IMG/VR virus record: IMGVR_UViG_2939121850_000001
Reading direction: 5' to 3' (one strand)
Origin: a virus
Taxonomy: Duplodnaviria > Heunggongvirae > Uroviricota > Caudoviricetes
Length of the DNA: 64,000 nucleotides
A model generated the notes under the pieces. The model searched no databases, was not told the origin of the DNA, and worked only from the letters and a program-made list of their open reading frames with translations. This document shows positions 2,632 through 63,981 of this stretch, in pieces. Both the position numbers and the translations under genes were made by a program. The first letter of the stretch is position 1. The number at the start of each line of letters is the position of its first letter.

Positions 2632-3633
2632 ATGTCAAAGAAAAACAGACCAACAATTGGGCGAACCCTTAATCCTTCAATATTAAGCGGATTTGATAGT
2701 TCTTCAGCCTCTGGCGATCGAGTCGAGCAGGTATTCAAGTTATCAACTGGTCGCCAGGCCACATTTATTGAAGAGGTAATACCTCCGAACCAGGTAGAAA
2801 GCGATACCTTTGTTGATCAGCATAACAACGGGCGTGACCAGGCATCTCTTACGCCAAAATCATTAAAAAGTATCCGAAGCACTATTAAGCATCAGCAATT
2901 TTACCCTGCAATAGGTGTTAGACGGGCTACAGGGAAAATTGAAATTTTGGATGGTTCCCGGCGTCGAGCTTCTGCCATCTTAGAGAACGTAGGGTTGCGG
3001 GTTTTAGTCACGGACCAGGAGATCAGCGTTCAGGAAGCGCAAAATTTAGCGAAAGACGTTCAGACAGCATTGCAGCACAGCATTCGAGAAATAGGTCTGC
3101 GTTTGATGCGAATGAAAAATGATGGGATGAGTCAGAAGGATATTGCAGCCAAAGAAGGGCTGTCTCAGGCGAAGGTCACGCGTGCTCTCCAGGCAGCGAG
3201 TGCTCCGGAAGAATTAGTCGCCCTTTTCCCTGTGCAGTCGGAATTAACCTTTTCGGACTACAAAACGCTTTGTGCTGTTGGCGACGAAATGGGGAACAAG
3301 AATTTAGAGTTTGATCAGCTTATTCAAAACATATCCCCGGAAATAAACGACATCTTATCCATTGAAGAAATGGCCGAAGATGAAGTTAAAAATAAAATCC
3401 TGCGCTTGATAACAAAGGAAGCCTCACTACTCACGGATAAAGGTTCTAAAGATAAGTCCGTAGTTACTGAATTATGGAAATTTGAGGACAAGGATCGCTT
3501 TGCAAGGAAGCGCGTGAAAGGCCGTGCATTTTCTTATGAGTTTAATCGACTTTCAAAAGAGCTACAGGAAGAACTCGACAGGATGATTGGGCATATCCTT
3601 AGAAAGAGCCTCGATAAAAAGCCGAAGCCTTAA
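2632..3633 (+). CDS. parB: Partition protein ParB
   Basis: 333-aa ORF 16 bp after parA; recognised as P1 ParB. Confidence 0.9.
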   Translation: MSKKNRPTIGRTLNPSILSGFDSSSASGDRVEQVFKLSTGRQATFIEEVIPPNQVESDTFVDQHNNGRDQASLTPKSLKSIRSTIKHQQFYPAIGVRRATGKIEILDGSRRRASAILENVGLRVLVTDQEISVQEAQNLAKDVQTALQHSIREIGLRLMRMKNDGMSQKDIAAKEGLSQAKVTRALQAASAPEELVALFPVQSELTFSDYKTLCAVGDEMGNKNLEFDQLIQNISPEINDILSIEEMAEDEVKNKILRLITKEASLLTDKGSKDKSVVTELWKFEDKDRFARKRVKGRAFSYEFNRLSKELQEELDRMIGHILRKSLDKKPKP

Positions 3634-3637
3634 ACTT

Positions 3638-3720
3638 TCGCCATTCAAATTTCACTATTAACCTACTGTTTTTAAAGTAAATCCATCTAAAATTTCAAGG
3701 TGAAATCGCCACGATTTCAC
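3638..3720. other. parS: parS centromere: box B TCGCCA and box A ATTTCAC motifs flanking an AT-rich IHF-like core
   Basis: TCGCCA at 3638 and 3706; ATTTCAC at 3649 and 3714 with inverted GTGAAAT at 3700; directly downstream of parB. Confidence 0.75.
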
Positions 3721-3788
3721 CTTGGATTTTACCTTCCTCCCCTACTCCCGAAAAAAATAAAAAAATTGCTTGTCACGAGAAAGTCAAC

Positions 3789-3807
3789 AAGTGACTTTCA
3801 ATAAAAT
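3789..3807 (+). promoter_or_regulatory. Late (Lpa-type) promoter element: 9-bp palindrome AAGTGACTT, 4-bp spacer, -10 TAAAAT
   Basis: Same architecture recurs upstream of other late operons (14640, 23248, 28770, 37335, 41055 minus). Confidence 0.5.
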
Positions 3808-3837
3808 CTCTTCCGAAAAGGGATTCACACAAGTGCC

Positions 3838-5565
3838 TTGTGTTTAAGGAAGAGTAAATTGAGTAACTTACGCGAATACCAGAATCGTATTGCAGATATC
3901 GCAAAACGCTCTAAAGCTGTGCTTGGCTGGGCAAGCACTGCGCAGTTCGGTACTGATAACCAATTCATTAAAGATGATGCCGCGCGTGCCGCATCTATCC
4001 TTGAAGCTGCACGTAAAGACCCGGTTTTTGCGGGTATCTCTGATAATGCCACCGCTCAAATCGCTACAGCGTGGGCAAGTGCACTGGCTGACTACGCCGC
4101 AGCACATAAATCTATGCCGCGTCCGGAAATTCTGGCCTCCTGCCACCAGACGCTGGAAAACTGCCTGATTGAGTCCACCCGCAATAGCATGGATGCCACT
4201 AATAAAGCGATGCTGGAATCCGTCGCAGCAGAGATGATGAGCGTTTCTGACGGTGTTATGCGTCTGCCTTTATTCCTCGCGATGATCCTGCCTGTTCAGT
4301 TGGGGGCAGCTACCGCTGATGCGTGTACCTTCATTCCGGTTACGCGTGACCAGTCCGACATCTATGAAGTCTTTAACGTGGCAGGTTCCTCTTTTGGTTC
4401 TTATGCTGCTGGTGATGTTCTGGACATGCAATCCGTCGGTGTGTACAGCCAGTTACGTCGCCGCTATGTGCTGGTGGCAAGCTCCGATGGCACTAGCAAA
4501 ACCGCAACCTTCAAGATGGAAGCCTTCGAAGGCCAGAATGTACCAATCCGAAAAGGTCGCACTAACATCTACGTTAACCGTATTAAGTCTGTTGTTGATA
4601 ACGGTTCCGGCAGCCTACTTCACTCGTTTACTAATGCTGCTGGTGAGCAAATCACTGTTACCTGCTCTCTGAACTACAACATTGGTCAGATTGCCCTGTC
4701 GTTCTCCAAAGCGCCGGATAAAGGCACTGAGATCGCAATTGAGACGGAAATCAATATTGAAGCCGCTCCTGAGCTGATCCCGCTGATCAACCACGAAATG
4801 AAGAAATACACCCTGTTCCCAAGTCAGTTCGTTATCGCGGCTGAGCACACGGTACAGGCGGCGTATGAAGCACAGCGTGAATTTGGTCTGGACCTGGGTT
4901 CCCTACAGTTCCGCACCCTGAAGGAATACCTGTCTCATGAACAGGATATGCTGCGTCTTCGCATCATGATCTGGCGCACTCTTGCGACCGACACCTTTGA
5001 CATCGCTCTGCCGGTTAACCAGTCCTTTGATGTATGGGCAACCATCATTCGTGGCAAATTCCAGACTGTATATCGCGACATTATTGAGCGCGTTAAATCT
5101 TCTGGTGCGATGGGGATGTTTGCTGGTGCTGATGCAGCATCTTTCTTCAAACAGTTGCCGAAGGATTTCTTCCAGCCAGCCGAAGACTATATCCAGACTC
5201 CGTATGTTCACTACATCGGTACCCTGTTCGGTAACGTGAAAGTGTACGAAGTACCTGCTGGTATTTGTAAGAACTTAACGACAGAGAACATTCAGTTCAG
5301 CTCGATGGATGTGCTGTGCTACGTCCGTGATGAAAATCCGGGTAAAGCAGGCTTCGTGACTGGTGATGCTGTCCCGGCTATCCCGTTCCAGCATCCGACC
5401 ACTCCGGCGCTGGTCAACCGTACCACACTGTGGGGTTCGGCTATCAACGATATGCACCCACGCAACGGCGCTGATTACTTCACTCGTGTAACGCTGACAA
5501 TGGCCAAAAAAGGCGGGCTTAACTTTATAAGCGGCGACACGATTGATGCCGGTGACTCTGAGTAA
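3838..5565 (+). CDS. Putative major head protein precursor (P1 gene 23 position); start uncertain (track start is TTG)
   Basis: 575-aa ORF next to parS behind a late promoter; Ala-rich helical N-terminal ~170 aa resembles a scaffold/delta domain; synteny only. Confidence 0.5.
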   Translation: MCLRKSKLSNLREYQNRIADIAKRSKAVLGWASTAQFGTDNQFIKDDAARAASILEAARKDPVFAGISDNATAQIATAWASALADYAAAHKSMPRPEILASCHQTLENCLIESTRNSMDATNKAMLESVAAEMMSVSDGVMRLPLFLAMILPVQLGAATADACTFIPVTRDQSDIYEVFNVAGSSFGSYAAGDVLDMQSVGVYSQLRRRYVLVASSDGTSKTATFKMEAFEGQNVPIRKGRTNIYVNRIKSVVDNGSGSLLHSFTNAAGEQITVTCSLNYNIGQIALSFSKAPDKGTEIAIETEINIEAAPELIPLINHEMKKYTLFPSQFVIAAEHTVQAAYEAQREFGLDLGSLQFRTLKEYLSHEQDMLRLRIMIWRTLATDTFDIALPVNQSFDVWATIIRGKFQTVYRDIIERVKSSGAMGMFAGADAASFFKQLPKDFFQPAEDYIQTPYVHYIGTLFGNVKVYEVPAGICKNLTTENIQFSSMDVLCYVRDENPGKAGFVTGDAVPAIPFQHPTTPALVNRTTLWGSAINDMHPRNGADYFTRVTLTMAKKGGLNFISGDTIDAGDSE

Positions 5566-9293: not shown

Positions 9294-9449
9294 TTACCTT
9301 TCAGATTCGTAGGCTGTGAAGACAGTGACCTCCGTCTGGCCGGTTCGGATTCGTACCTCGCAGAGGTCTTTCCTCGTTACCAGTGCCGTCACAATGACGG
9401 TTAAACAGATGACGATCAGAGCGATTAATATCGCTTTTTGCTGCTTCAT
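9294..9449 (-). CDS. hok: Hok/Gef-family type I toxin (51 aa)
   Basis: Hand translation of minus strand: MKQQKAILIALIVICLTVIVTALVTRKDLCEVRIRTGQTEVTVFTAYESER, near-identical in pattern to E. coli Gef/HokC; SD AAGGAG upstream. Below ORF-track size cutoff. Confidence 0.8.
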   Translation of the reverse strand: MKQQKAILIALIVICLTVIVTALVTRKDLCEVRIRTGQTEVTVFTAYESER

Positions 9450-9507
9450 AGCCTGCTTCTCCTTGACCTTTTGGTCGGTAAGAGGCTAATCTACGTATGC
9501 TAAGCAT
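9301..9507 (-). CDS. mok-like overlapping reading frame
   Basis: 68-aa ORF in another frame starting 58 nt upstream of hok and overlapping it, as in hok/mok/sok loci. Confidence 0.45.
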   Translation of the reverse strand: MLSIRRLASYRPKGQGEAGYEAAKSDINRSDRHLFNRHCDGTGNEERPLRGTNPNRPDGGHCLHSLRI

Positions 9508-9560
9508 AGATATTGCCTCAGATTAATGTTAAGCGTCTTGCAGGACGCGTAATGTTATCT
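9470..9560 (+). ncRNA. Inferred Sok-like antisense RNA region (boundaries not determined)
   Basis: Expected opposite the mok start/hok leader; TTGACC -35-like at 9463. Inference only. Confidence 0.25.
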
Positions 9561-9630
9561 GGGGCTTTCTTCTATCTGCTTTTCGGGTAATGCCTGAAGC
9601 AGATAGCCTCAAGCACCCGCAGCGATTGTA

Positions 9631-9926: not shown

Positions 9927-10772
9927 TCACCCTCTGAATCCTGCCGGTATACCCCATTGTTCGTTATCTTTATTTTTGGCTAAAACCGCATTAAGAGCTT
10001 CGTTTACCGTCATGCAATGCGGCAGATTATCGAAGTTTGATACCCCGCCAATATCAGGAGAACGCTTGTTCTTCAGGTAAGCATATTTCCGCGCTGCCGC
10101 CTCTACCTTCTGCTTGAACTCATGTTTTTGAGCGCGTTTTTTGGATAACCGCAGATTGTCAGCCTTTGCTTTTGCCTCAGCGATCCATGAAGTCAATTTT
10201 TTGAGTCTGCTCGTTCCGGCACCGCCGGAAACTGATCTTTTTGTTTTTTTAACTTGTGACTTCTTATTCTTTATTGCCACGTCATCCTGACAGGGGGAGG
10301 GGGTATCATTTTGACATGGGGGTGTGGATAAAAAATTAAATAAAGCCAATGTCTTAGCGAGAACAGCTTTAACCTTGGTTGCCGCTGAAGAGATCTTTAA
10401 TTTGCTTTCAATCAGCGCATTTTTGGCTTGTTGTGCGAAGGCCAAAAAGGATGGTGTAAACCGGTACAGGTTAGCGCGACGTTCACGGTGATCGCCGATA
10501 ACAATCTCTACAGACAGAATTCCTTTGTTTACAGCTTCACGGAATGCACGAACGACGGTTGATTGGCTATAACCAGTTTCTGCCGCGATCAGGCGGTGAG
10601 GCTTGTGAATGAAGTATTCACTGGTTGTTGCCGCGAGATTTGCACATTGCGACAGGATATGCCCGGCGCTACGGGATAGACCGGAGTGTGTTACAAAGCA
10701 GGCCAATTCATAGCCAGAAAAAGTAAAATCGCTCATCGTTATACAGCTCAGGAAAGTGACTTTAGCCAGCAT
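9927..10772 (-). CDS. repL: Lytic replication initiator RepL
   Basis: 281-aa ORF downstream of kilA; size and sequence match my recollection of P1 RepL. Confidence 0.8.
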   Translation of the reverse strand: MLAKVTFLSCITMSDFTFSGYELACFVTHSGLSRSAGHILSQCANLAATTSEYFIHKPHRLIAAETGYSQSTVVRAFREAVNKGILSVEIVIGDHRERRANLYRFTPSFLAFAQQAKNALIESKLKISSAATKVKAVLAKTLALFNFLSTPPCQNDTPSPCQDDVAIKNKKSQVKKTKRSVSGGAGTSRLKKLTSWIAEAKAKADNLRLSKKRAQKHEFKQKVEAAARKYAYLKNKRSPDIGGVSNFDNLPHCMTVNEALNAVLAKNKDNEQWGIPAGFRG

Positions 10773-13028: not shown

Positions 13029-13077
13029 AGTTACGGCCTCATTCGTAGGTTTAACAACCTGCGCCCCGCTGCTAAAC

Positions 13078-13155
13078 GGGTGGCAGGACGTGACGGGGTT
13101 AGCAGACTGGCACGAATGAAACCAGCAGGCCGAAGCCTCCCCATCACGCCCCACC
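13078..13155 (-). ncRNA. c4: c4 antisense repressor RNA of immI (~78 nt)
   Basis: Minus-strand 5' GGUGGGGCGUGAUGGGGAGGCUUCGGCC...CCACCC 3' with terminal complementarity and UUCG tetraloop hairpin; between Op51 and icd. Confidence 0.55.
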
Positions 13156-13342
13156 ATAATTCGGGCGTAACGTGGTTTTACGGACACAAAAATACCGCAA
13201 TATCGGATATCTGCGGTTGTCCGCATTCGTATTCAGGCTGCTAAACCCGGTCGCAGAATTTGCTACGACGGCGGAACTATAAGCCTGAACGATTAAAAGG
13301 TCAATATGATGCGAAAAGATAGCATTCGCGACTTAAAAATAC

Positions 13343-55227: not shown

Positions 55228-56259
55228 CTAATTGCCATCTTCCAGCAGGCGCACCATTGCCCCTGTTTCACTATCCAGGTTACGGATATAGTTCATGACA
55301 ATATTTACGTTGGTCCAGCCACCAGCTTGCATGATCTCCGGTATTGAAACTCCGGCACGGGCCATATCTCGCGCGGCTCCGACACGGGCACTGTGTCCAG
55401 ACCAGGCCAGGTACCTCTGTCCAGAGTCATCCTTAGCCCCGTAAATCAATCGGTGAGTTGCTTCAAAAATCCCTTCTAGGGCGCGAGTTGATAGCTGGCT
55501 GGTGGGTGATGGCGAGGCAACACCATTTTTTCTGACCCGGCAAAACAGGTAGTTATTCGGATCATCAGCCACACCAGAGACAGAAATCCATCGCTCGACC
55601 AGTTTAGTTACCCCCAGGCTAAGTGCCTTCTCTACACCTGCGGTGCTAACCAGCGTTTTCGTTCTGCCAATATGGATTAACATTCTCCCACCGTCAGTAC
55701 GTGAGATATCTTTAACCCTGATCCTGGCAATTTCGGCTATACGTAACAGGGTGTTATAAGCAATCCCCAGAAATGCCAGATTACGTATATCCTGGCAGCG
55801 ATCGCTATTTTCCATGAGTGAACGAACCTGGTCGAAATCAGTGCGTTCGAACGCTAGTGCCTGTTTTGCACGTTCACCGGCATCAACGTTTTCTTTTCGG
55901 ATCCGCCGCATAACCAGTGAAACAGCATTGCTATCACTTGGTCGCTGCAGCCCGGACCGACGATGAAGCATGTTTAGCTGGCCCAAATGTTGCTGGATAG
56001 TTTTTACTGCCAGACCGCGCGCCTGAAGATATAGAAGATAATCGCGAACATCTTCAGGTTCTGCGGGAAACCATTTCCGGTTATTCAACTTGCACCATGC
56101 CGCCCACGACCGGCAAACGGACAGAAGCATTTTCCAGGTATGCTCAGAAAACGCCTGGCGATCCCTGAACATGTCCATCAGGTTCTTGCGAACCTCATCA
56201 CTCGTTGCATCGACCGGCAATGCAGGCAAATTTTGGTGTACGGTCAGTAAATTGGACAT
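55228..56259 (-). CDS. cre: Cre tyrosine recombinase
   Basis: 343-aa ORF MSNLLTVHQNLPALPVDATSDEVRKNLMDMFRDRQAFSEHTWK... recognised as Cre; loxP ~420 bp upstream. Confidence 0.95.
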   Translation of the reverse strand: MSNLLTVHQNLPALPVDATSDEVRKNLMDMFRDRQAFSEHTWKMLLSVCRSWAAWCKLNNRKWFPAEPEDVRDYLLYLQARGLAVKTIQQHLGQLNMLHRRSGLQRPSDSNAVSLVMRRIRKENVDAGERAKQALAFERTDFDQVRSLMENSDRCQDIRNLAFLGIAYNTLLRIAEIARIRVKDISRTDGGRMLIHIGRTKTLVSTAGVEKALSLGVTKLVERWISVSGVADDPNNYLFCRVRKNGVASPSPTSQLSTRALEGIFEATHRLIYGAKDDSGQRYLAWSGHSARVGAARDMARAGVSIPEIMQAGGWTNVNIVMNYIRNLDSETGAMVRLLEDGN

Positions 56260-57092: not shown

Positions 57093-57302
57093 ATGGCTTT
57101 CATTCAACCAACCATCGACGACGTTAGACATTGCTCTAACGCTTTATCTGTAGACCCTGCCGAAACCGACGCTGCCCGCGCCATTGCTGAACACTACTCA
57201 AAGATATCCAATCAGGAGTACCGCATCACCCAAGACGACCTGGATGACCTCACTGACACAATCGAATATCTCATGGCAACTAACCAGTTAGACTCACAAT
57301 AA
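57093..57302 (+). CDS. coi: Coi (C1 inactivator)
   Basis: 69-aa ORF immediately upstream of c1. Confidence 0.75.
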   Translation: MAFIQPTIDDVRHCSNALSVDPAETDAARAIAEHYSKISNQEYRITQDDLDDLTDTIEYLMATNQLDSQ

Positions 57303-57412: not shown

Positions 57413-58264
57413 ATGATAAATTATGTCTACGGCGAACAACTGTACCAGGAGTTCGTCAGCTTCAGGGATCTCTTTCTAAAAAAAGCTGTTGCACGCGCCC
57501 AACACGTTGATACAGCCAGCGACGGTCGTCCTGTACGCCCGGTTGTCGTTCTACCGTTCAAAGAAACTGACAGCATTCAGGCTGAAATTGATAAATGGAC
57601 TTTAATGGCGCGGGAACTGGAACAGTACCCAGACCTCAATATCCCAAAGACTATTTTATATCCAGTGCCTAACATCCTTCGCGGTGTGCGCAAGGTTACA
57701 ACTTATCAGACAGAAGCTGTGAACAGCGTCAACATGACCGCTGGCCGCATTATTCATCTGATTGATAAGGACATTCGCATCCAAAAAAGCGCGGGGATCA
57801 ATGAGCACAGTGCGAAATACATAGAGAACCTGGAAGCAACAAAAGAGCTAATGAGGCAGTACCCGGAGGATGAAAAATTCCGTATGCGTGTACACGGCTT
57901 TAGCGAAACAATGCTGCGCGTCCACTACATCTCCAGTAGCCCTAACTACAATGATGGTAAATCAGTTAGTTACCATGTACCGCTGTGTGGCGTGTTTATC
58001 TGCGATGAAACTCTCCGTGATGGAATCATCATCAACGGTGAATTCGAAAAAGCAAAATTTAGCCTTTATGACTCCATAGAACCGATCATCTGCGACCGCT
58101 GGCCACAAGCAAAAATATATCGCCTGGCAGATATTGAAAATGTAAAAAAACAAATTGCCATCACTCGCGAAGAGAAAAAGGTTAAGTCAGCCGCATCAGT
58201 TACGCGCAGCCGTAAAACCAAGAAGGGGCAGCCAGTAAACGACAACCCCGAAAGCGCGCAATAA
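57413..58264 (+). CDS. c1: C1 repressor
   Basis: 283-aa ORF; size, position and sequence match my recollection of P1 C1. Confidence 0.9.
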   Translation: MINYVYGEQLYQEFVSFRDLFLKKAVARAQHVDTASDGRPVRPVVVLPFKETDSIQAEIDKWTLMARELEQYPDLNIPKTILYPVPNILRGVRKVTTYQTEAVNSVNMTAGRIIHLIDKDIRIQKSAGINEHSAKYIENLEATKELMRQYPEDEKFRMRVHGFSETMLRVHYISSSPNYNDGKSVSYHVPLCGVFICDETLRDGIIINGEFEKAKFSLYDSIEPIICDRWPQAKIYRLADIENVKKQIAITREEKKVKSAASVTRSRKTKKGQPVNDNPESAQ

Positions 58265-58267
58265 ATT

Positions 58268-58289
58268 ATGCCCGGCATCAACCGGGCAT
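58268..58289. terminator. Hairpin between convergent c1 and ant-2
   Basis: ATGCCCGG-catcaa-CCGGGCAT; no clear T-run. Confidence 0.4.
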
Positions 58290-58296
58290 TCTTCCA

Positions 58297-59330
58297 TTAT
58301 TCAGCCGCCACCGGTTTTAACAAGCCAGCATCGAGCAGTTTACGCGTCAACCACTGTTGGCCTTTCCCCGTTAATTGGGGCGTCAGCCGTATCTGGTAGC
58401 CCTCTTCATCATCCAGCACCACTTCTTTCACTGTGAAATATCCGGCGTTTATGTACTGCTGGAACGGTACATTTTTACGGCCGCCGGACGCTATCAGAAT
58501 GCCGTTCTCCCGTAACCAGGCAAACAGCGCATTTTGTTTAAGTCCAACGACCTTTGCAAAATTCCCAATCAGGATCCCCTTAGCCACTGATACCCGGTCG
58601 GCAAAATCGACTTTGGGGGCTGCGGCCACCAGCTGCTGATTTAGCTGATGGGCTTTCTGTTCCAGAAGTTGCTTTTGTTCGGCCAGTTCGGCAGCCAGGC
58701 GGAGGGCTTCTGGGAGTGTCTGGGGGATTGCGATCGGTTGCTGTTCTTTTTGTCGGAAGTAGCTGTCTTCCAGTTTTTCAAAGAATGCCCACGCTTCATT
58801 TGTGTCCACGATCTTAGACATGCGTGCCGCTCCGCGCTCGGCCCAGAGAATTACCTGACTTGTATATTTGCTAACCAAGTGACTAATAGTCACTAGCCTT
58901 TTAAATTCCTTTAATTTTGAACCAGTTAAGAGATAGTAATGCTTACCTTCTTCAAAGCGATCGGGGTTGCGAGACAGATTTTTACGAATATTCGCTTCAT
59001 CGGTCCCATACCCCTTAGCAAGAGTCTCAGTTGTCACTACACGCACTCCCAGCCATTCCAGAACGGGAATTTCATCAGGCTGATTTTGAGCAACCACCAG
59101 CTCTGATTCCTGAACTGAAGGTGCATGAGTTTTTTCTGATTTAACGTTAGTTGCTTTCATTCTGTGTGCCTCCTTGCGTGTTTCGGCTGCGACGGTTGCG
59201 TAATTCAGATGACCCTGTTCGAGCAGGTATTCGCGGATATCAGACAACAGGATACGGTGAACCGCGTTCTTGTCCTTTCTCCGGTAAAGTTGTTTGGTGA
59301 TCATGAAGTAGTTGGCAATAACGCCTGGTA
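58297..59330 (-). pseudogene. Second antirepressor (ant-like) gene, 3' part, separated from its start by IS10
   Basis: C-terminus near-identical to Ant at 11767-12810; reading frame continues up to the IS10 junction. Confidence 0.75.
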
Positions 59331-60659
59331 CTGAGAGATCCCCTCATAATTTCCCCAAAACGTAACCATGTGTGAATAGATTTTGAGTAAGCAGGGTTGC
59401 AGCCACGAGTGAGTCTTCCCTTGTTATTGTGTAGCCAGAATGCCGCAAAACTTCCATGCCTAAGCGAACTGTTGAGAGTACGTTTCGATTTCTGACTGTG
59501 TTAGCCTGGAAGTGCTTGTCCCAACCTTGTTTCTGAGCATGAACGCCCGCAAGCCAACATGTTAGTTGAAGCATCAGGGCGATTAGCAGCATGATATCAA
59601 AACGCTCTGAGCTGCTCGTTCGGCTATGGCGTAGGCCTAGTCCGTAGGCAGGACTTTTCAAGTCTCGGAAGGTTTCTTCAATCTGCATTCGCTTCGAATA
59701 GATATTAACAAGTTGTTTGGGTGTTCGAATTTCAACAGGTAAGTTAGTTGCTAGAATCCATGGCTCCTTTGCCGACGCTGAGTAGATTTTAGGTGACGGG
59801 TGGTGACAATGAGTCCGTGTCGAGCGCTGATTTTTTCGGCCTTTAGAGCGAGATTTATACAATAGAATTTGGCATGAGATTGGATTGCTTTTAGTCAGCC
59901 TCTTATAGCCTAAAGTCTTTGAGTGACTAGATGACATATCATGTAAGTTGCTGATAGGTTTCCAGTTTTCCGCTCCTAGGTCTGCATATTGTACTTTTCC
60001 TCTTACTCGACTTAACCAGTACCAACCCAGCTTCTCAACGGATTTATACCATGGCACTTTAAAGCCAGCATCACTGACAATGAGCGGTGTGGTGTTACTC
60101 GGTAGAATGCTCGCAAGGTCGGCTAGAAATTGGTCATGAGCTTTCTTTGAACATTGCTCTGAAAGCGGGAACGCTTTCTCATAAAGAGTAACAGAACGAC
60201 CGTGTAGTGCGACTGAAGCTCGCAATACCATAAGCCGTTTTTGCTCACGGATATCAGACCAGTCAACAAGTACAATGGGCATCGTATTGCCCGAACAGAT
60301 AAAGCTAGCATGCCAACGGTATACAGCGAGTCGCTCTTTGTGGAGGTGACGATTACCTAACAATCGGTCGATTCGTTTGATGTTATGTTTTGTTCTCGCT
60401 TTGGTTGGCAGGTTACGGCCAAGTTCGGTAAGAGTGAGAGTTTTACAGTCAAGTAAGGCGTGGCAAGCCAACGTTAAGCTGTTGAGTCGTTTTAAGTGTA
60501 ATTCGGGGCAGAATTGGTAAAGAGAGTCGTGTAAAATATCGAGTTCGCACATTTTGTTGTCTGATTATTGATTTTTGGCGAAACCATTTGATCATATGAC
60601 AAGATGTGTATCTACCTTAACTTAATGATTTTGATAAAAATCATTAGGGGATTCATCAG
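59331..60659. mobile_element. IS10 (1329 bp) with 9-bp target site duplication CGCCTGGTA
   Basis: Ends CTGAGAGATCCCCTCATAATTTCCCC and CTGATGAATCCCCTAATGATTTT (reverse complement); direct repeats at 59322-59330 and 60660-60668. Confidence 0.95.
59344..60552 (-). CDS. IS10 transposase
   Basis: 402-aa ORF MCELDILHDSLYQFCPELHLKRLNSLTLACHALLDCKTLTLTELGRNLPTKARTKHNIKRIDRLLGNRHL... recognised as IS10 transposase. Confidence 0.95.
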   Translation of the reverse strand: MCELDILHDSLYQFCPELHLKRLNSLTLACHALLDCKTLTLTELGRNLPTKARTKHNIKRIDRLLGNRHLHKERLAVYRWHASFICSGNTMPIVLVDWSDIREQKRLMVLRASVALHGRSVTLYEKAFPLSEQCSKKAHDQFLADLASILPSNTTPLIVSDAGFKVPWYKSVEKLGWYWLSRVRGKVQYADLGAENWKPISNLHDMSSSHSKTLGYKRLTKSNPISCQILLYKSRSKGRKNQRSTRTHCHHPSPKIYSASAKEPWILATNLPVEIRTPKQLVNIYSKRMQIEETFRDLKSPAYGLGLRHSRTSSSERFDIMLLIALMLQLTCWLAGVHAQKQGWDKHFQANTVRNRNVLSTVRLGMEVLRHSGYTITREDSLVAATLLTQNLFTHGYVLGKL

Positions 60660-60747
60660 CGCCTGGTATATCCCTGGTACTGATACAGGCAGTGTGCTGT
60701 TCAATTGCCTCGATCATCTCTTCACGGGTGACTAATGACGTTCTCAT
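60660..60747 (-). pseudogene. ant-like gene 5' fragment (first ~29 codons)
   Basis: ATG at 60747 with SD; encodes MRTSLVTREEMIEAIEQHTACISTRDIPG, paralogous to Ant N-terminus. Confidence 0.7.
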
Positions 60748-60965
60748 AGTCCCTCCTGAGCAGAAGCGTTAACAGGGAGGCACCAGTAACTGAGAGAATT
60801 GCGTGAATCAGTGGAAAAACGGGCAGAGAAAATACATGGGGCGTCAGGAAGCTGAGAGCGGGCCTCATCTTCTGTTGGTGCAATAACGAAGTGATAGTGA
60901 CGTTTTTGGCAGGAGTAAAAGCGCCAGATAAATTCAGGATGAGTTGGGGTAGGGATAGTAGCCAT
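60744..60965 (-). CDS. Second Icd-like protein (73 aa)
   Basis: MATIPTPTHPEFIWRFYSCQKRHYHFVIAPTEDEARSQLPD...; SD AAGGAGG; stop overlaps ant-like start. Confidence 0.6.
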   Translation of the reverse strand: MATIPTPTHPEFIWRFYSCQKRHYHFVIAPTEDEARSQLPDAPCIFSARFSTDSRNSLSYWCLPVNASAQEGL

Positions 60966-61025
60966 ATTGGCAGCCTCCTTAGACGTTGGTATGTAACCAC
61001 CGCAGAAGAGACCAATCTTGCTGGC

Positions 61026-61101
61026 GGTGGACTGTACGGAGTTGGCCTTACTGGCGTCCAAGGTAACCAGCCTACCCGAAGGTAGCCCCATACAGCCCAC
61101 C
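61026..61101 (-). ncRNA. Second c4-like antisense RNA (~76 nt), sequence-divergent from copy 1
   Basis: 5' GGUGGGCUGUAUGGGGCUACCUUCGGGUAGGCUGG...UACAGUCCACC 3'; same architecture as 13078-13155. Confidence 0.45.
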
Positions 61102-61283
61102 ATTGTAGAGGTGTGCGTGTACGCCGATACAAAAAAAGACGCGAGCGGCGTCTGTATCGCCTTAGACTTAAGCGGGAGGCCAATCCCGGCACCCGTTTTA
61201 ATGAGGTGCCTGATAAGCATAAACCGAAAATGCCACAAGGCGCAAGAGGTCAGGTTCAATGTAACATCGGTAGCTAAAAAACA

Positions 61284-61300
61284 CAATTTATTAGAGCAAA
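61284..61300. promoter_or_regulatory. C1 operator at the promoter of the second immI-like module
   Basis: CAATTTATTAGAGCAAA. Confidence 0.55.
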
Positions 61301-61303
61301 TAT

Positions 61304-62788
61304 TCATTCATTAAGCCATGCCAGAGCTTCATCAACCTGCGCTTCGTCTTCGACGCTAAGCCCTTCATCCTGGGGAACATAATCCGCCAGCATAGCGAAA
61401 CAATATGTATCCCAATGGTCTGGTGAGTGCAGGTTGAGTTTTTTCTTCATATCCTCCTTACTCATCACCTTCCATTGACCTGCGGAGTTAATCCCTACAG
61501 GGATTTTCGACGCTTCCTCAATAGTTTCATTACCCTTATCCAGTCTCATACGACCAGATTTTACGGCCTCTGCGGCTTGAACATTGGCATAAGCACGTTT
61601 ATCAAAGTACAGGCTCTTATCTTCACGGCTATGCATCTTTTTACCCCAGCGTATACGCTGTACGGTAATACCATAATACTCGTACATCAGATCCGCCGTT
61701 GCTTTACCCAGGCCATCGCCGTCTATCGCTATGGTGATATTGGGGAATCGCTCAGGATTACATTCTGCGAAAATTTTGGCGGCAAGCTGCGTTTCTGTAA
61801 CGTCTGTGTATTCCAGCATTCGATAGTTGATTACACGGCGTTTATTTCGCTGGCCGGACACCATCATGATATTGATAACGGACTTATCCCGTCCCGTACC
61901 ACCAGCAACGTCCACACATGCAAGCCAGCCCCATCCTTTTGCAATCTTGACTTTCCGCCGCGTTGCACGTTCAACCTCATCACGTCCAAGAAGGAAGCCA
62001 TCCTGTGATTTAGGGAATAGGCCGCGTACCTTAATCATGTACATAGGGTTATCACGCCCGCCGTACTCCGCCAGCTTCATTTTGATAAATGCTGGCGTTA
62101 CCAACGGTGATTCCTCACTGTTAAGCGTGATCGCCGTATAAACGCCATCAGGGTTACCAGGACGCTTGGCCAGTTTATGGTGTGTATCGTAGAAATAGCC
62201 GCTTGGGCGTGTAGGCTGTGACAGCAATAAGATGCGGTTATCCTGTCCGGTAAGAGCACCGGTGATGATACCGAAAGCTCTATCACTGACACCGGAGGCT
62301 TCATCGATAATATACAGAAGATGATCTGCGTGTTCACCGGCGAGAGCTTCTTCACTTCCCAGACGAAAGCCCTTCGGTACTACAGTCCATACACCTTTAC
62401 CAGTAACCTCATAGAAAGCGGTTTCTGTCAGAACAAAATAATCAGCAAGCCATGGGAAACGGCTGGTGGCAGTAGCCCAGTTTATCTTGATGTACTTGAA
62501 TATACCGGTCATTACCTGCTGAATTTTGTTCGCAACGATAATGGCACGGGCACCTGGATACATGATTATGAACAACATGATCATGATAGAAGTCATGTCT
62601 GATTTCCCGGTACCGTGACCAGACGAAACAGATGTCTTGCTACCCTGTTCCTGCACAGACTCAATAATCAGATCCTGCTGCCAGGTAGGTGTTTTGCCGA
62701 ACAAAACATCAGCGGCAGCAATCCAGTCATAACGATATAGCGCCACCAGCTCGCGCCAACGTGGATCCGTTACGCAACTTCTGGCCAT
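61304..62788 (-). CDS. pacB: Terminase large subunit PacB
   Basis: 494-aa ORF; Walker A SGHGTGKS and Walker B-like [11 protein letters not shown]. Confidence 0.8.
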
Positions 62789-63981
62789 TAATCATCATCC
62801 CCGTATAGCTTGCGGGTAACTTCTTCGTCTTCCTCCTCGTCTTCGTCCAGGTCTTGTTCCAGCCATGGGTCGTTTGATACACCTTCAGTATCAACATCTC
62901 CATAACCGCCTGTATCAACAATATCGGCGATTTCTTCCCTACGCTGCTCAATCCACAATGCGGCATCGGCGCGGCGGTTGGCGGCCCGTTCTCGCGCAAC
63001 TTTGTCCAGATCTTCAAGAGAAGGGCCACCGACGGCTGTTTGCCTTTCCTCATCATCGGTATTGGTCTTAGGAGCACGCAGATCGGCTTTGATTTGCTCC
63101 AGCATCAGGGGCGGAACTTTCCCGCCATGCGCCTCGATGAATTCAGCTGCTTCCAGCACTGACCAGTTATTTTCACGCTTTCGTTCGTATGCCAGTTTAA
63201 CAATGCCAGCTTGCCCCATAGACAAAGCGTGCTTTTCCGCCTCCCGGCTTTCTTTTCGATAGTTATTCCGGATGCTGTAAATGGTGTTGATCAGGCTGCT
63301 TATCTGCGCGGAACAGCTGTTTAGCATGCTCGCGATACGGTATTCAGGCGGAGTTCCTTCATCATCGTCTTTTTGCTGATCGCGCATTTCCTGAACCAAG
63401 CGAATACACGTATCCCTGGCGTTCTCCAGCATAAGGAGATGAGAGAGAGACTTTTCCAGAAGAGTGGTTTCCAGAACATCAGCCCCGGACCGACGCAACA
63501 TAGCGCGCGCGGCCTTCCGCGCTTCAACGTTATCTATCAGGTAATCGCCAGCTTCGAATTCAAAGCGTTCACCATCATCATCCAGGGTGTCGCGTTCCAG
63601 GCGATCACGTAAGGTCCGGTGGGCGCGGGTGATCACGTCATGATCATCAGAACGATCATTTATGCGCTTATTCTGGCGCTTCGCGTTCTCGACTGCGGCA
63701 CTGACAACAGCATTAACTCTTTGTTTTTCAGCCATTTCAGCCACAACGTGATCACCTGCACGTTGATCATTAGCGTGATCAATGATCATGCTTTTTAGTG
63801 GTTTTCTGACAGGCTTATTTGGCTTACGGCTGTCCGCTGTTCCGGTGTCTTCTTTGAATGCACGGAGATAACGACGTGCGGTGTTTGGGTTGAGATTAAA
63901 CTCGGCGGCATATTGTGCGATGGTGTAACCACCATCTCGCGCCAGGCGAGCAAAATTCTTCTTGTGATCGTCCCAGGTCAC
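62788..63981 (-). CDS. pacA: Terminase small subunit PacA (pac site within coding region)
   Basis: 397-aa ORF overlapping pacB start by 1 nt; contains TGATCA hexamer clusters. Confidence 0.75.
63600..63790. other. pac: pac packaging site: two clusters of Dam-methylatable TGATCA/G hexamers
   Basis: GATCAC, TGATCAC, TGATCAT, CGATCAT at 63603-63657 and TGATCAC, TGATCAT, TGATCAA, TGATCAT at 63742-63782. Confidence 0.65.

Follow-up and report, generated by a model that had tools for sequence, protein, structure and literature searches.

In P1 the convergent stop codons of c1 and pacB lie 24 bp apart, whereas they lie 3039 bp apart in the P1-like phage-plasmid that is the source of IMG/VR record IMGVR_UViG_2939121850_000001, which raises the question of what the additional DNA encodes and whether it can take part in immunity. 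We analysed a 64,000-nucleotide stretch of this record (hereafter the window). Its extra DNA replaces the P1 spacer exactly, the boundaries of the cassette being those of the P1 intergenic spacer, and on the minus strand it carries, in order, a C1 operator, an isrK-like leader RNA with two C4 target elements (a1 and b1) and a terminator, a C4 RNA gene, a second pair of targets (a2 and b2), icd, and ant. The canonical immI region adjoining kilA-repL is complete in the same window (operator, a1b1, c4, icd, and an ant of 347 amino acids [aa]). An earlier reading, made from the sequence alone (the sequence-only reading), had proposed a second module between c1 and pacB besides the canonical one; comparison of the gene order with P1 agrees with it, both modules are present, and every element that it listed lies where it had been placed or a few bases away. 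In our assessment this cassette, which takes the place of the P1 c1-pacB spacer, is probably an accessory, second immI-type operon (isrK/C4 kind) that was recently hit by the insertion sequence (IS) IS10.

The second C4 RNA and its targets

The Rfam family RF01695 finds two C4 genes in the window, one in the canonical module (13161..13076, 71.9 bits) and one in the cassette (61107..61020, minus strand), the latter at full length (model positions 1-87) with 75.9 bits against a gathering threshold of 45. The predicted mature form of the second C4 RNA is 76 nt long (61101..61026, minus strand), has a GGUGG...UUCG...CCACC architecture, and is predicted to fold at -41.6 kcal/mol with two inner hairpins. 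Its recognition elements b' (CCUUGGAC, 61063..61056) and a' (AGGCCAAC, 61048..61041) have an upstream pair of targets in the leader, a1 (ATTGGCCT, 61184..61177) and b1 (GTCTAAGG, 61167..61160), and a downstream pair, a2 (ATTGGTCT, 61016..61009) and b2 (GTCTAAGGAGG, 60984..60974), all on the minus strand; b2 holds the icd Shine-Dalgarno sequence and lies 8 nt before the ATG. The computed energies of the cognate duplexes are -16.0 kcal/mol for b' and -9.2 kcal/mol for a'.

That the second C4 RNA would be about 76 nt long and share the architecture of the canonical one while differing from it in sequence had been read from the sequence, and both the Rfam matches and the recognition elements bear this out. 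The second C4 has a' AGGCCAA and b' CCUUGGAC, the canonical C4 of the window has a' CUGCUAA and b' CAUUCGU, and the recognition sequences of P1 and P7 differ again from both. When the two C4 RNAs were compared with the targets of the two modules, each paired with its own (b' only, -15.0 and -16.0 kcal/mol; a' plus b', -24.3 and -25.2 kcal/mol), whereas the cross duplexes were weak (b' only, -5.5 and -7.7 kcal/mol; a' plus b', -12.7 and -16.5 kcal/mol). The same computation gave similarly weak b' crosses between P1 and the canonical module of the window. Because the recognition sequences are unrelated and the cross duplexes weak, the two modules should not cross-regulate and should be orthogonal. 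Heteroimmunity between P1 and P7 is classically attributed to differences in c4 and ant (PMC12197685, PMC6906374).

The canonical C4 of the window (13076-13161, minus strand; targets at 13230-13282 and 13029-13075) is itself of neither the P1 nor the P7 type. It has the a' of P7 (CUGCUAA) and a b' loop of its own (CAUUCGUG, against CACAAUCG in P7 and CACUAACG in P1), this loop is matched by its own b1 and b2 (ACGAATG), and the canonical immI specificities would thus number three. With respect to annotation, the 'ash family protein' of RefSeq was considered as a real gene and rejected, as its 39-aa coding sequence (CDS) coincides with the C4 RNA gene and appears to represent an open reading frame (ORF) called over an RNA gene. 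This CDS lies over C4 at 2882-3001 and 1782-1901 of two of the stretches compared (L009 and L011, respectively) and in many RefSeq records, the equivalent place in the window being about 61020-61107, and RefSeq modules that bear it have no annotation of the C4 and isrK RNAs.

Covariation across relatives

Thirteen isrK-type modules were aligned, 11 from the c1-pacB site, one from the canonical immI site of plasmid pEC2_5, and one from a non-P1 Salmonella plasmid; counts were restricted to isrK-type sequences, with which P1-type leaders are out of register at a2/b2. The 13 modules comprise five specificity types made from three 'a' and three 'b' alleles. Fifteen pairs were proposed to join a'/b' to a2/b2; standard pairs fill 150 of 150 cells, and 7 of the 15 pairs have changed on both sides. 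For a'/b' against a1/b1 pairing is again 100% in 150 cells, also with changes on both sides in 7 of 15 pairs. In slid controls, with the partner shifted by 1-3 columns, pairing was 25-53% for a2/b2 and 25-55% over both target sets, and none of 500 shuffles reached the covariation score. Three sites thus change together for each element, which is hard to explain unless C4 reads both target pairs. These alignments point to clear purifying and compensatory constraint on the regulatory part across relatives, as would be expected if the intact copies are functional.

An alternative hairpin at 60997-61030 (minus strand) was considered and rejected as too weak. It would join CCACCGC, the 3' side of the outer stem of C4, to a downstream GCGGTGG and so enclose a2 in its loop; the 13 relatives keep this helix fully (100%) paired, but only one of its pairs covaries (C-G to U-A).

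Operator, leader and candidate promoters

The C1 operator (TTTGCTCTAATAAATTG, 61284..61300, minus strand) starts 4 nt past the pacB stop codon and has 2 mismatches to the consensus ATTGCTCTAATAAATTT. A scan of the window allowing up to 3 mismatches gave 9 matches against 0.34 expected, a number reached in none of 100 shuffles, and the operator is kept in all 12 relatives with a module at the c1-pacB site, so that this element of the sequence-only reading stands on both consensus match and conservation. A candidate promoter, proposed from sequence and conservation, overlaps the operator (61259..61286, minus strand) and consists of TTGTGT (61286..61281), a 16-nt spacer and TTACAT (61264..61259); P2c4/P51a and Op51 of P1 have a matching geometry (P1 annotation). 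A second candidate, of the isrK type (61216..61245, minus strand), consists of TTGCGC (61245..61240), an 18-nt spacer and TATGCT (61221..61216), agrees with the consensus at 8 of 12 positions, and implies a transcription start (+1) at about the point where the isrK match begins. Both candidates are kept in all c1-pacB copies compared. The -35 element of the second is also kept in pEC2_5 and in the non-P1 Salmonella plasmid, which is without a C1 operator, and its -10 element is kept in the former and differs in the latter.

The leader RNA (61132..61209, minus strand) matches Rfam family RF01394 (isrK) with 60.8 bits against a gathering threshold of 50 and has an intrinsic terminator at its end (61153..61131, minus strand), the two features expected of an isrK small RNA. 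Against the c4-a1b1 model it scores 20.5 bits, below the gathering threshold of 46.7. In its predicted fold, a1 and b1 lie in hairpin loops.

The icd and ant genes and the IS10 insertion

The icd paralog (60744..60965, minus strand) encodes 73 aa, as had been proposed, matches NCBIfam NF033153 (phage_ICD_like) with 49.8 bits and shares 81% of 64 aligned residues with the canonical Icd. Its stop codon overlaps the start codon of ant (ATGA, 60747..60744), an arrangement expected for translational coupling. The ant gene is split into a 5' fragment (60660..60747, minus strand), which comprises codons 1-29 and the right copy of a target duplication (60660-60668) and reads into IS10 as a 41-aa ORF, and a 3' part (58297..59330, minus strand), which comprises codons 30-370 and encodes an ORF6N domain (PF10543) in the middle and a KilAC domain (PF03374) at the C-terminus. 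The element between them (59331..60659, minus strand) has the length (1329 bp) and termini of IS10, a 9-bp target duplication (CGCCTGGTA, 59322-59330 and 60660-60668), an intact 402-aa transposase of the IS4 family (60552..59344, minus strand, co-oriented with the operon), and RNA-OUT (60545-60614, plus strand; full-length match, 97.3 bits). When IS10 and one copy of the repeat are removed, a 370-aa ant ORF is restored. The ends, the duplication and the restored ORF together confirm the claimed split of the Ant paralog after about codon 29; the insertion interrupts the long frame at codon 29/30 and leaves the promoter region, the leader, C4 and icd untouched, so that the C4 RNA and Icd genes are kept, also as claimed.

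The restored Ant is 56% identical to the canonical Ant1 and is a mosaic, with residues 1-95 like the Ant1-specific N-terminus, an ORF6N middle domain that is absent from P1-type Ant, and a near identical KilAC domain. The annotated ant2 start of P1 is codon 84 of ant1, and AAGGAGG-N8-ATG is found at codon 84 in both window paralogs and in all 11 relatives examined. In the cassette this Ant2-type start is ATG 59160, which lies 171 bp downstream of IS10 and opens an intact frame of 287 aa (59160..58297) with both recognisable domains. Inactivation of the second antirepressor, as the sequence-only reading had it, therefore holds for the long, Ant1-type form but not for the Ant2-type cistron, which lies intact downstream with its own Shine-Dalgarno sequence; an intact ant would provide both the long and the internal short form, and the gene of the relatives is intact.

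The downstream ant is in frame with the stop codon of the transposase gene (TGA, 59346..59344), and an in-frame ATG (59304, opening a 335-aa ORF) follows 40 nt on. Read-through or re-initiation at this stop would give an N-terminally altered Ant, and the frame match would arise by coincidence in 1 of 3 cases. Strong polarity is usual for IS10 insertions, and the transposase is very poorly translated; both count against production of a shortened Ant.

The same IS10 insertion was found in none of the phages, PLSDB plasmids and complete E. coli genomes searched, where no place covers at least 80% of the query, and a near-identical IS-free parent was not found, the closest record being AP024695 (97.7%). 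Insertions of IS elements and antibiotic-resistance genes have been reported in the canonical ant1 (PMC5786510). A parallel IS10 hit in ant of pEF45-2 (NZ_CP086606.1) was considered and rejected, as the element there, an ISVsa5 of the IS10 family (about 3391-4719 of the stretch examined), sits outside ant, a short way upstream of the regulatory region of the canonical immI.

Distribution among relatives and comparison with known systems

The sequence-only reading had expected c1 and pacB to be adjacent, as they are in P1 with its 24-bp spacer, but a module between them is not unusual: a survey of P1-like genomes found such modules in both phages and PLSDB plasmids. It is intact at this site in phages RCS47, JL22 and vB_EcoM-673R5, and in PLSDB it is carried by 268 of the 701 plasmids with a P1-type c1, a plasmid being counted if at least 80% of the IS-free module matched in one place. 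The regulatory region occurs in 275 PLSDB plasmids, in 102 of them as the type of the window (type A), and among complete E. coli genomes type A is found at 99% identity or more in 132 RefSeq records. The cassette is absent from P1 and P7. An insertion of ant between pacB and c1 has been reported in RCS47 and pTZ20_1P (PMC6906374), in an account that does not mention the C4 RNA, its targets, the operator or specificity, and our literature search, with subscription journals outside it, found no description of these elements or of specificity types at the c1-pacB site. The second immI-type operon is thus a common variant that has been little described, and the IS10 allele is the part peculiar to the window genome.

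RCS47 carries the same cassette at the same site, and the whole non-IS10 part can be aligned with it at about 89% identity. It differs from the window in having an intact 371-aa ant, no IS10, and another C4 type (a' GUCUCAA, b' CCUUUGAC). In NZ_CP061751.1 (433-1545 of the stretch examined), ant is truncated to 298 aa, and C4 and icd are intact. Other remnants were also seen, namely a 133-aa 3' remnant of ant abutting pacB in NZ_CP070907.1 (1533-1934 of the stretch examined) and a 990-bp remnant of ant in NZ_CP119403.1 (2501-3490), where the pac region has been replaced.

In order and logic the window module resembles the immI region of P1 and P7 (Op51, P51a/b, a1, b1, c4, a2, b2, icd, ant1/ant2). 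In both, a C1 operator overlaps the first promoter (a candidate in the window), a C4 RNA of 76-77 nt belongs to the same Rfam family, two elements face upstream and downstream pairs of targets, of which b2 covers the Shine-Dalgarno sequence of icd, a 73-aa Icd has an ATGA overlap with ant, and Ant begins with a conserved N-terminal extension, ends in a KilAC domain and has its internal Ant2 start at codon 84. The window module differs in its location between c1 and pacB rather than on the kilA-repL side, in being co-directional with and directly downstream of the late pacAB operon with no sim genes upstream, in its unrelated recognition sequences, in having an isrK (RF01394) leader rather than c4-a1b1, and in the ORF6N domain in the middle of Ant. 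It also resembles isrK-orf45-anrP of the Salmonella prophage Gifsy-1, with an isrK-family leader that ends in a terminator and a small ORF coupled by ATGA to an antirepressor gene. Unlike Gifsy-1, it has a complete C4 gene between the leader and the small ORF, the small ORF encodes an Icd homolog, and the regulator hit by Ant would be P1 C1.

Related regulatory regions extend beyond P1-like elements. Complete E. coli genomes hold about 134 chromosomal places with copies of the leader and C4 that are 84-89% identical. In satellite-like islands (integrase, antA/antB, 'ash', icd-like, primase) the leader and C4 scaffold is about 85-89% identical to that of the window and has the same a' AGGCCAA, whereas the b'/b1/b2 sets are others that match one another, no C1 operator is present, and different genes, with no KilAC ant, follow icd. 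As these copies have their own matched sets, the cassette is a mobile regulatory unit and the C1 operator a P1-specific addition to it. Two such islands were inspected, in NZ_CP026202.1 (3495-3760) and NC_013353.1 (3480-3750 of the stretches examined). The IncY P1-like plasmid pEC2_5 (NZ_CP041960.1) has an isrK-type module at the canonical immI site by kilA-repL (2991-4564 of the stretch examined), with an ORF6N-type Ant of 363 aa and a C4 of type D, and no second copy was found in the search. The two families of module can thus replace each other at either site.

Proposed function and alternatives

By analogy with P1 and P7, C4 would be cut out of transcripts that start at the leader promoters in a lysogen and would pair with a2 and b2, blocking translation of icd and, via coupling and polarity, expression of ant; C1 bound at the operator would lower transcription further, and Ant, when made, would inactivate C1. 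Given orthogonality, each C4 would repress its own ant only. Without the long Ant, the window module would contribute no full antagonism of C1, production of C4 and Icd should persist unless transcription from pOUT of IS10 interferes, and a short form of Ant would perhaps still be made, depending on transcription through IS10. A resident type-A C4 could act in trans to repress the second ant of a superinfecting type-A relative, and a relative with types B-D or with a foreign canonical type would escape it. The suggestion in the sequence-only reading that the module serves as a heterotypic immunity cassette is plausible, because the type A C4 is present in 102 PLSDB plasmids, and the computed orthogonality together with these counts gives the hypothesis concrete form.

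Several points weigh against a functional second operon of this kind. Neither candidate promoter reaches the threshold of a strict sigma-70 scan, which gave none on the minus strand of the regulatory region, and their identification comes from position, P1 geometry and conservation only. As a terminator stands between the leader and C4, the yield of C4 depends on read-through. The IS10 promoter pOUT reads antisense toward the ant 5' fragment, icd and c4, and its transcription might interfere with the module. Since the Ant2-type cistron survives IS10, loss of a functional antirepressor is not established. Finally, p88COLEC-1 and pMRE162 have lost the c4-icd end and retain an ant 3' remnant only, and degradation of the module in several ways (c4-icd lost, ant truncated, or the whole absent) argues against a consistent selective pattern.

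It is quite possible, if somewhat short of an even chance, that the cassette is dispensable cargo in which IS10 hit ant by chance, with no selection for the retention of C4 and icd and no present function for them. The IS10 allele, seen in no other record of the three collections, looks like a recent singleton, the damage in p88COLEC-1, pMRE162 and NZ_CP061751 is of unrelated kinds, and P1 and P7 manage without the cassette. Against such neutrality stands the clear purifying and compensatory constraint on the regulatory part across relatives; moreover, C4 does not need ant in order to act in trans, and type A is frequent enough to make encounters plausible. As to whether selection has favoured keeping C4 and losing Ant, the wider pattern gives no support to such an adaptive history, and plain decay appears to fit at least as well.

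We consider it doubtful that the module is mainly a device for induction or offence, in which the isrK-like RNA, through a1/b1, would act in trans on C4 or the leader to turn on icd-ant, and in which a second ant of another specificity would break the immunity of resident relatives. Its leader passes the isrK threshold and ends in a terminator, so that a short RNA is expected, a1 and b1 show perfect complementarity to, and covariation with, the C4 loops, and in Gifsy-1 IsrK activates orf45-anrP, a case of trans-activation of a downstream antirepressor (PMC4825925). Gifsy-1 as described there, however, has no C4 between isrK and orf45, so that the circuits differ, and IS10 has disrupted the offensive arm in the window genome. 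It is unlikely that the antirepressor is not truly lost and that an Ant of 287 aa (from ATG 59160) or 335 aa (from ATG 59304) is made by read-through of IS10 and is partly active: the internal start with its AAGGAGG is conserved with P1 ant2 and the relatives, ORF6N and KilAC lie wholly downstream of IS10, and the co-oriented transposase gene ends in frame just upstream of the second start, but P1 Ant is described as acting in an Ant1/Ant2 complex (P1 annotation; PMC8198154), and conservation of the Ant1-specific N-terminal 83 residues between the paralogs, despite the swapped middle domain, suggests that they are important.

Genomic surroundings

The second immI-type operon and its IS10 lie among genes in the order cre (55228-56259, minus strand), coi (57093-57302, plus strand), c1 (57413-58264, plus strand), the cassette, pacB (61304-62788, minus strand) and pacA (62788-63981, minus strand). 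A GC-rich inverted repeat (58268..58289) between the convergent stop codons of c1 and ant is a probable bidirectional terminator. Elsewhere in the window, a sok antitoxin RNA of the hok/sok toxin-antitoxin type gives a strong Rfam match (9444-9618, minus strand; 114.3 bits) beside the lytic replicon gene repL (9927-10772).

Implications for P1-like phage-plasmids

In Enterobacteriaceae, P1-like phage-plasmids are widespread and carry resistance genes. It is the immunity circuits of these elements that determine if two can coexist in one cell and if an incoming one induces the prophage already resident there. A second C4/icd/ant operon, with several mutually orthogonal specificities, occurs in over one third of sequenced P1-like plasmids; the standard picture of a single immI, drawn from P1 and P7, does not cover it, and recognising it provides a testable handle on heteroimmunity groups. 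The IS10 allele is of lesser importance and shows one way in which modules get disabled. If its C4 is expressed, the window module is a natural 'immunity without antirepressor' construct, and loss of ant with C4 kept would turn a module of offence and defence into a cassette of pure defence.

The more interesting question opened by these results is that of two-locus combinatorial C4 specificity among P1-like plasmids. We suggest, tentatively and as a possibility more than an expectation, that P1-like phage-plasmids have a two-locus, combinatorial immunity code of antisense RNAs, shared with chromosomal satellite-like islands. Were this true, at least three 'a' and at least three 'b' alleles in isrK-type modules, in addition to P1, P7 and the canonical type of the window, would provide many heteroimmunity groups, and this code would decide coexistence or displacement among the P1-like plasmids that carry antimicrobial resistance.

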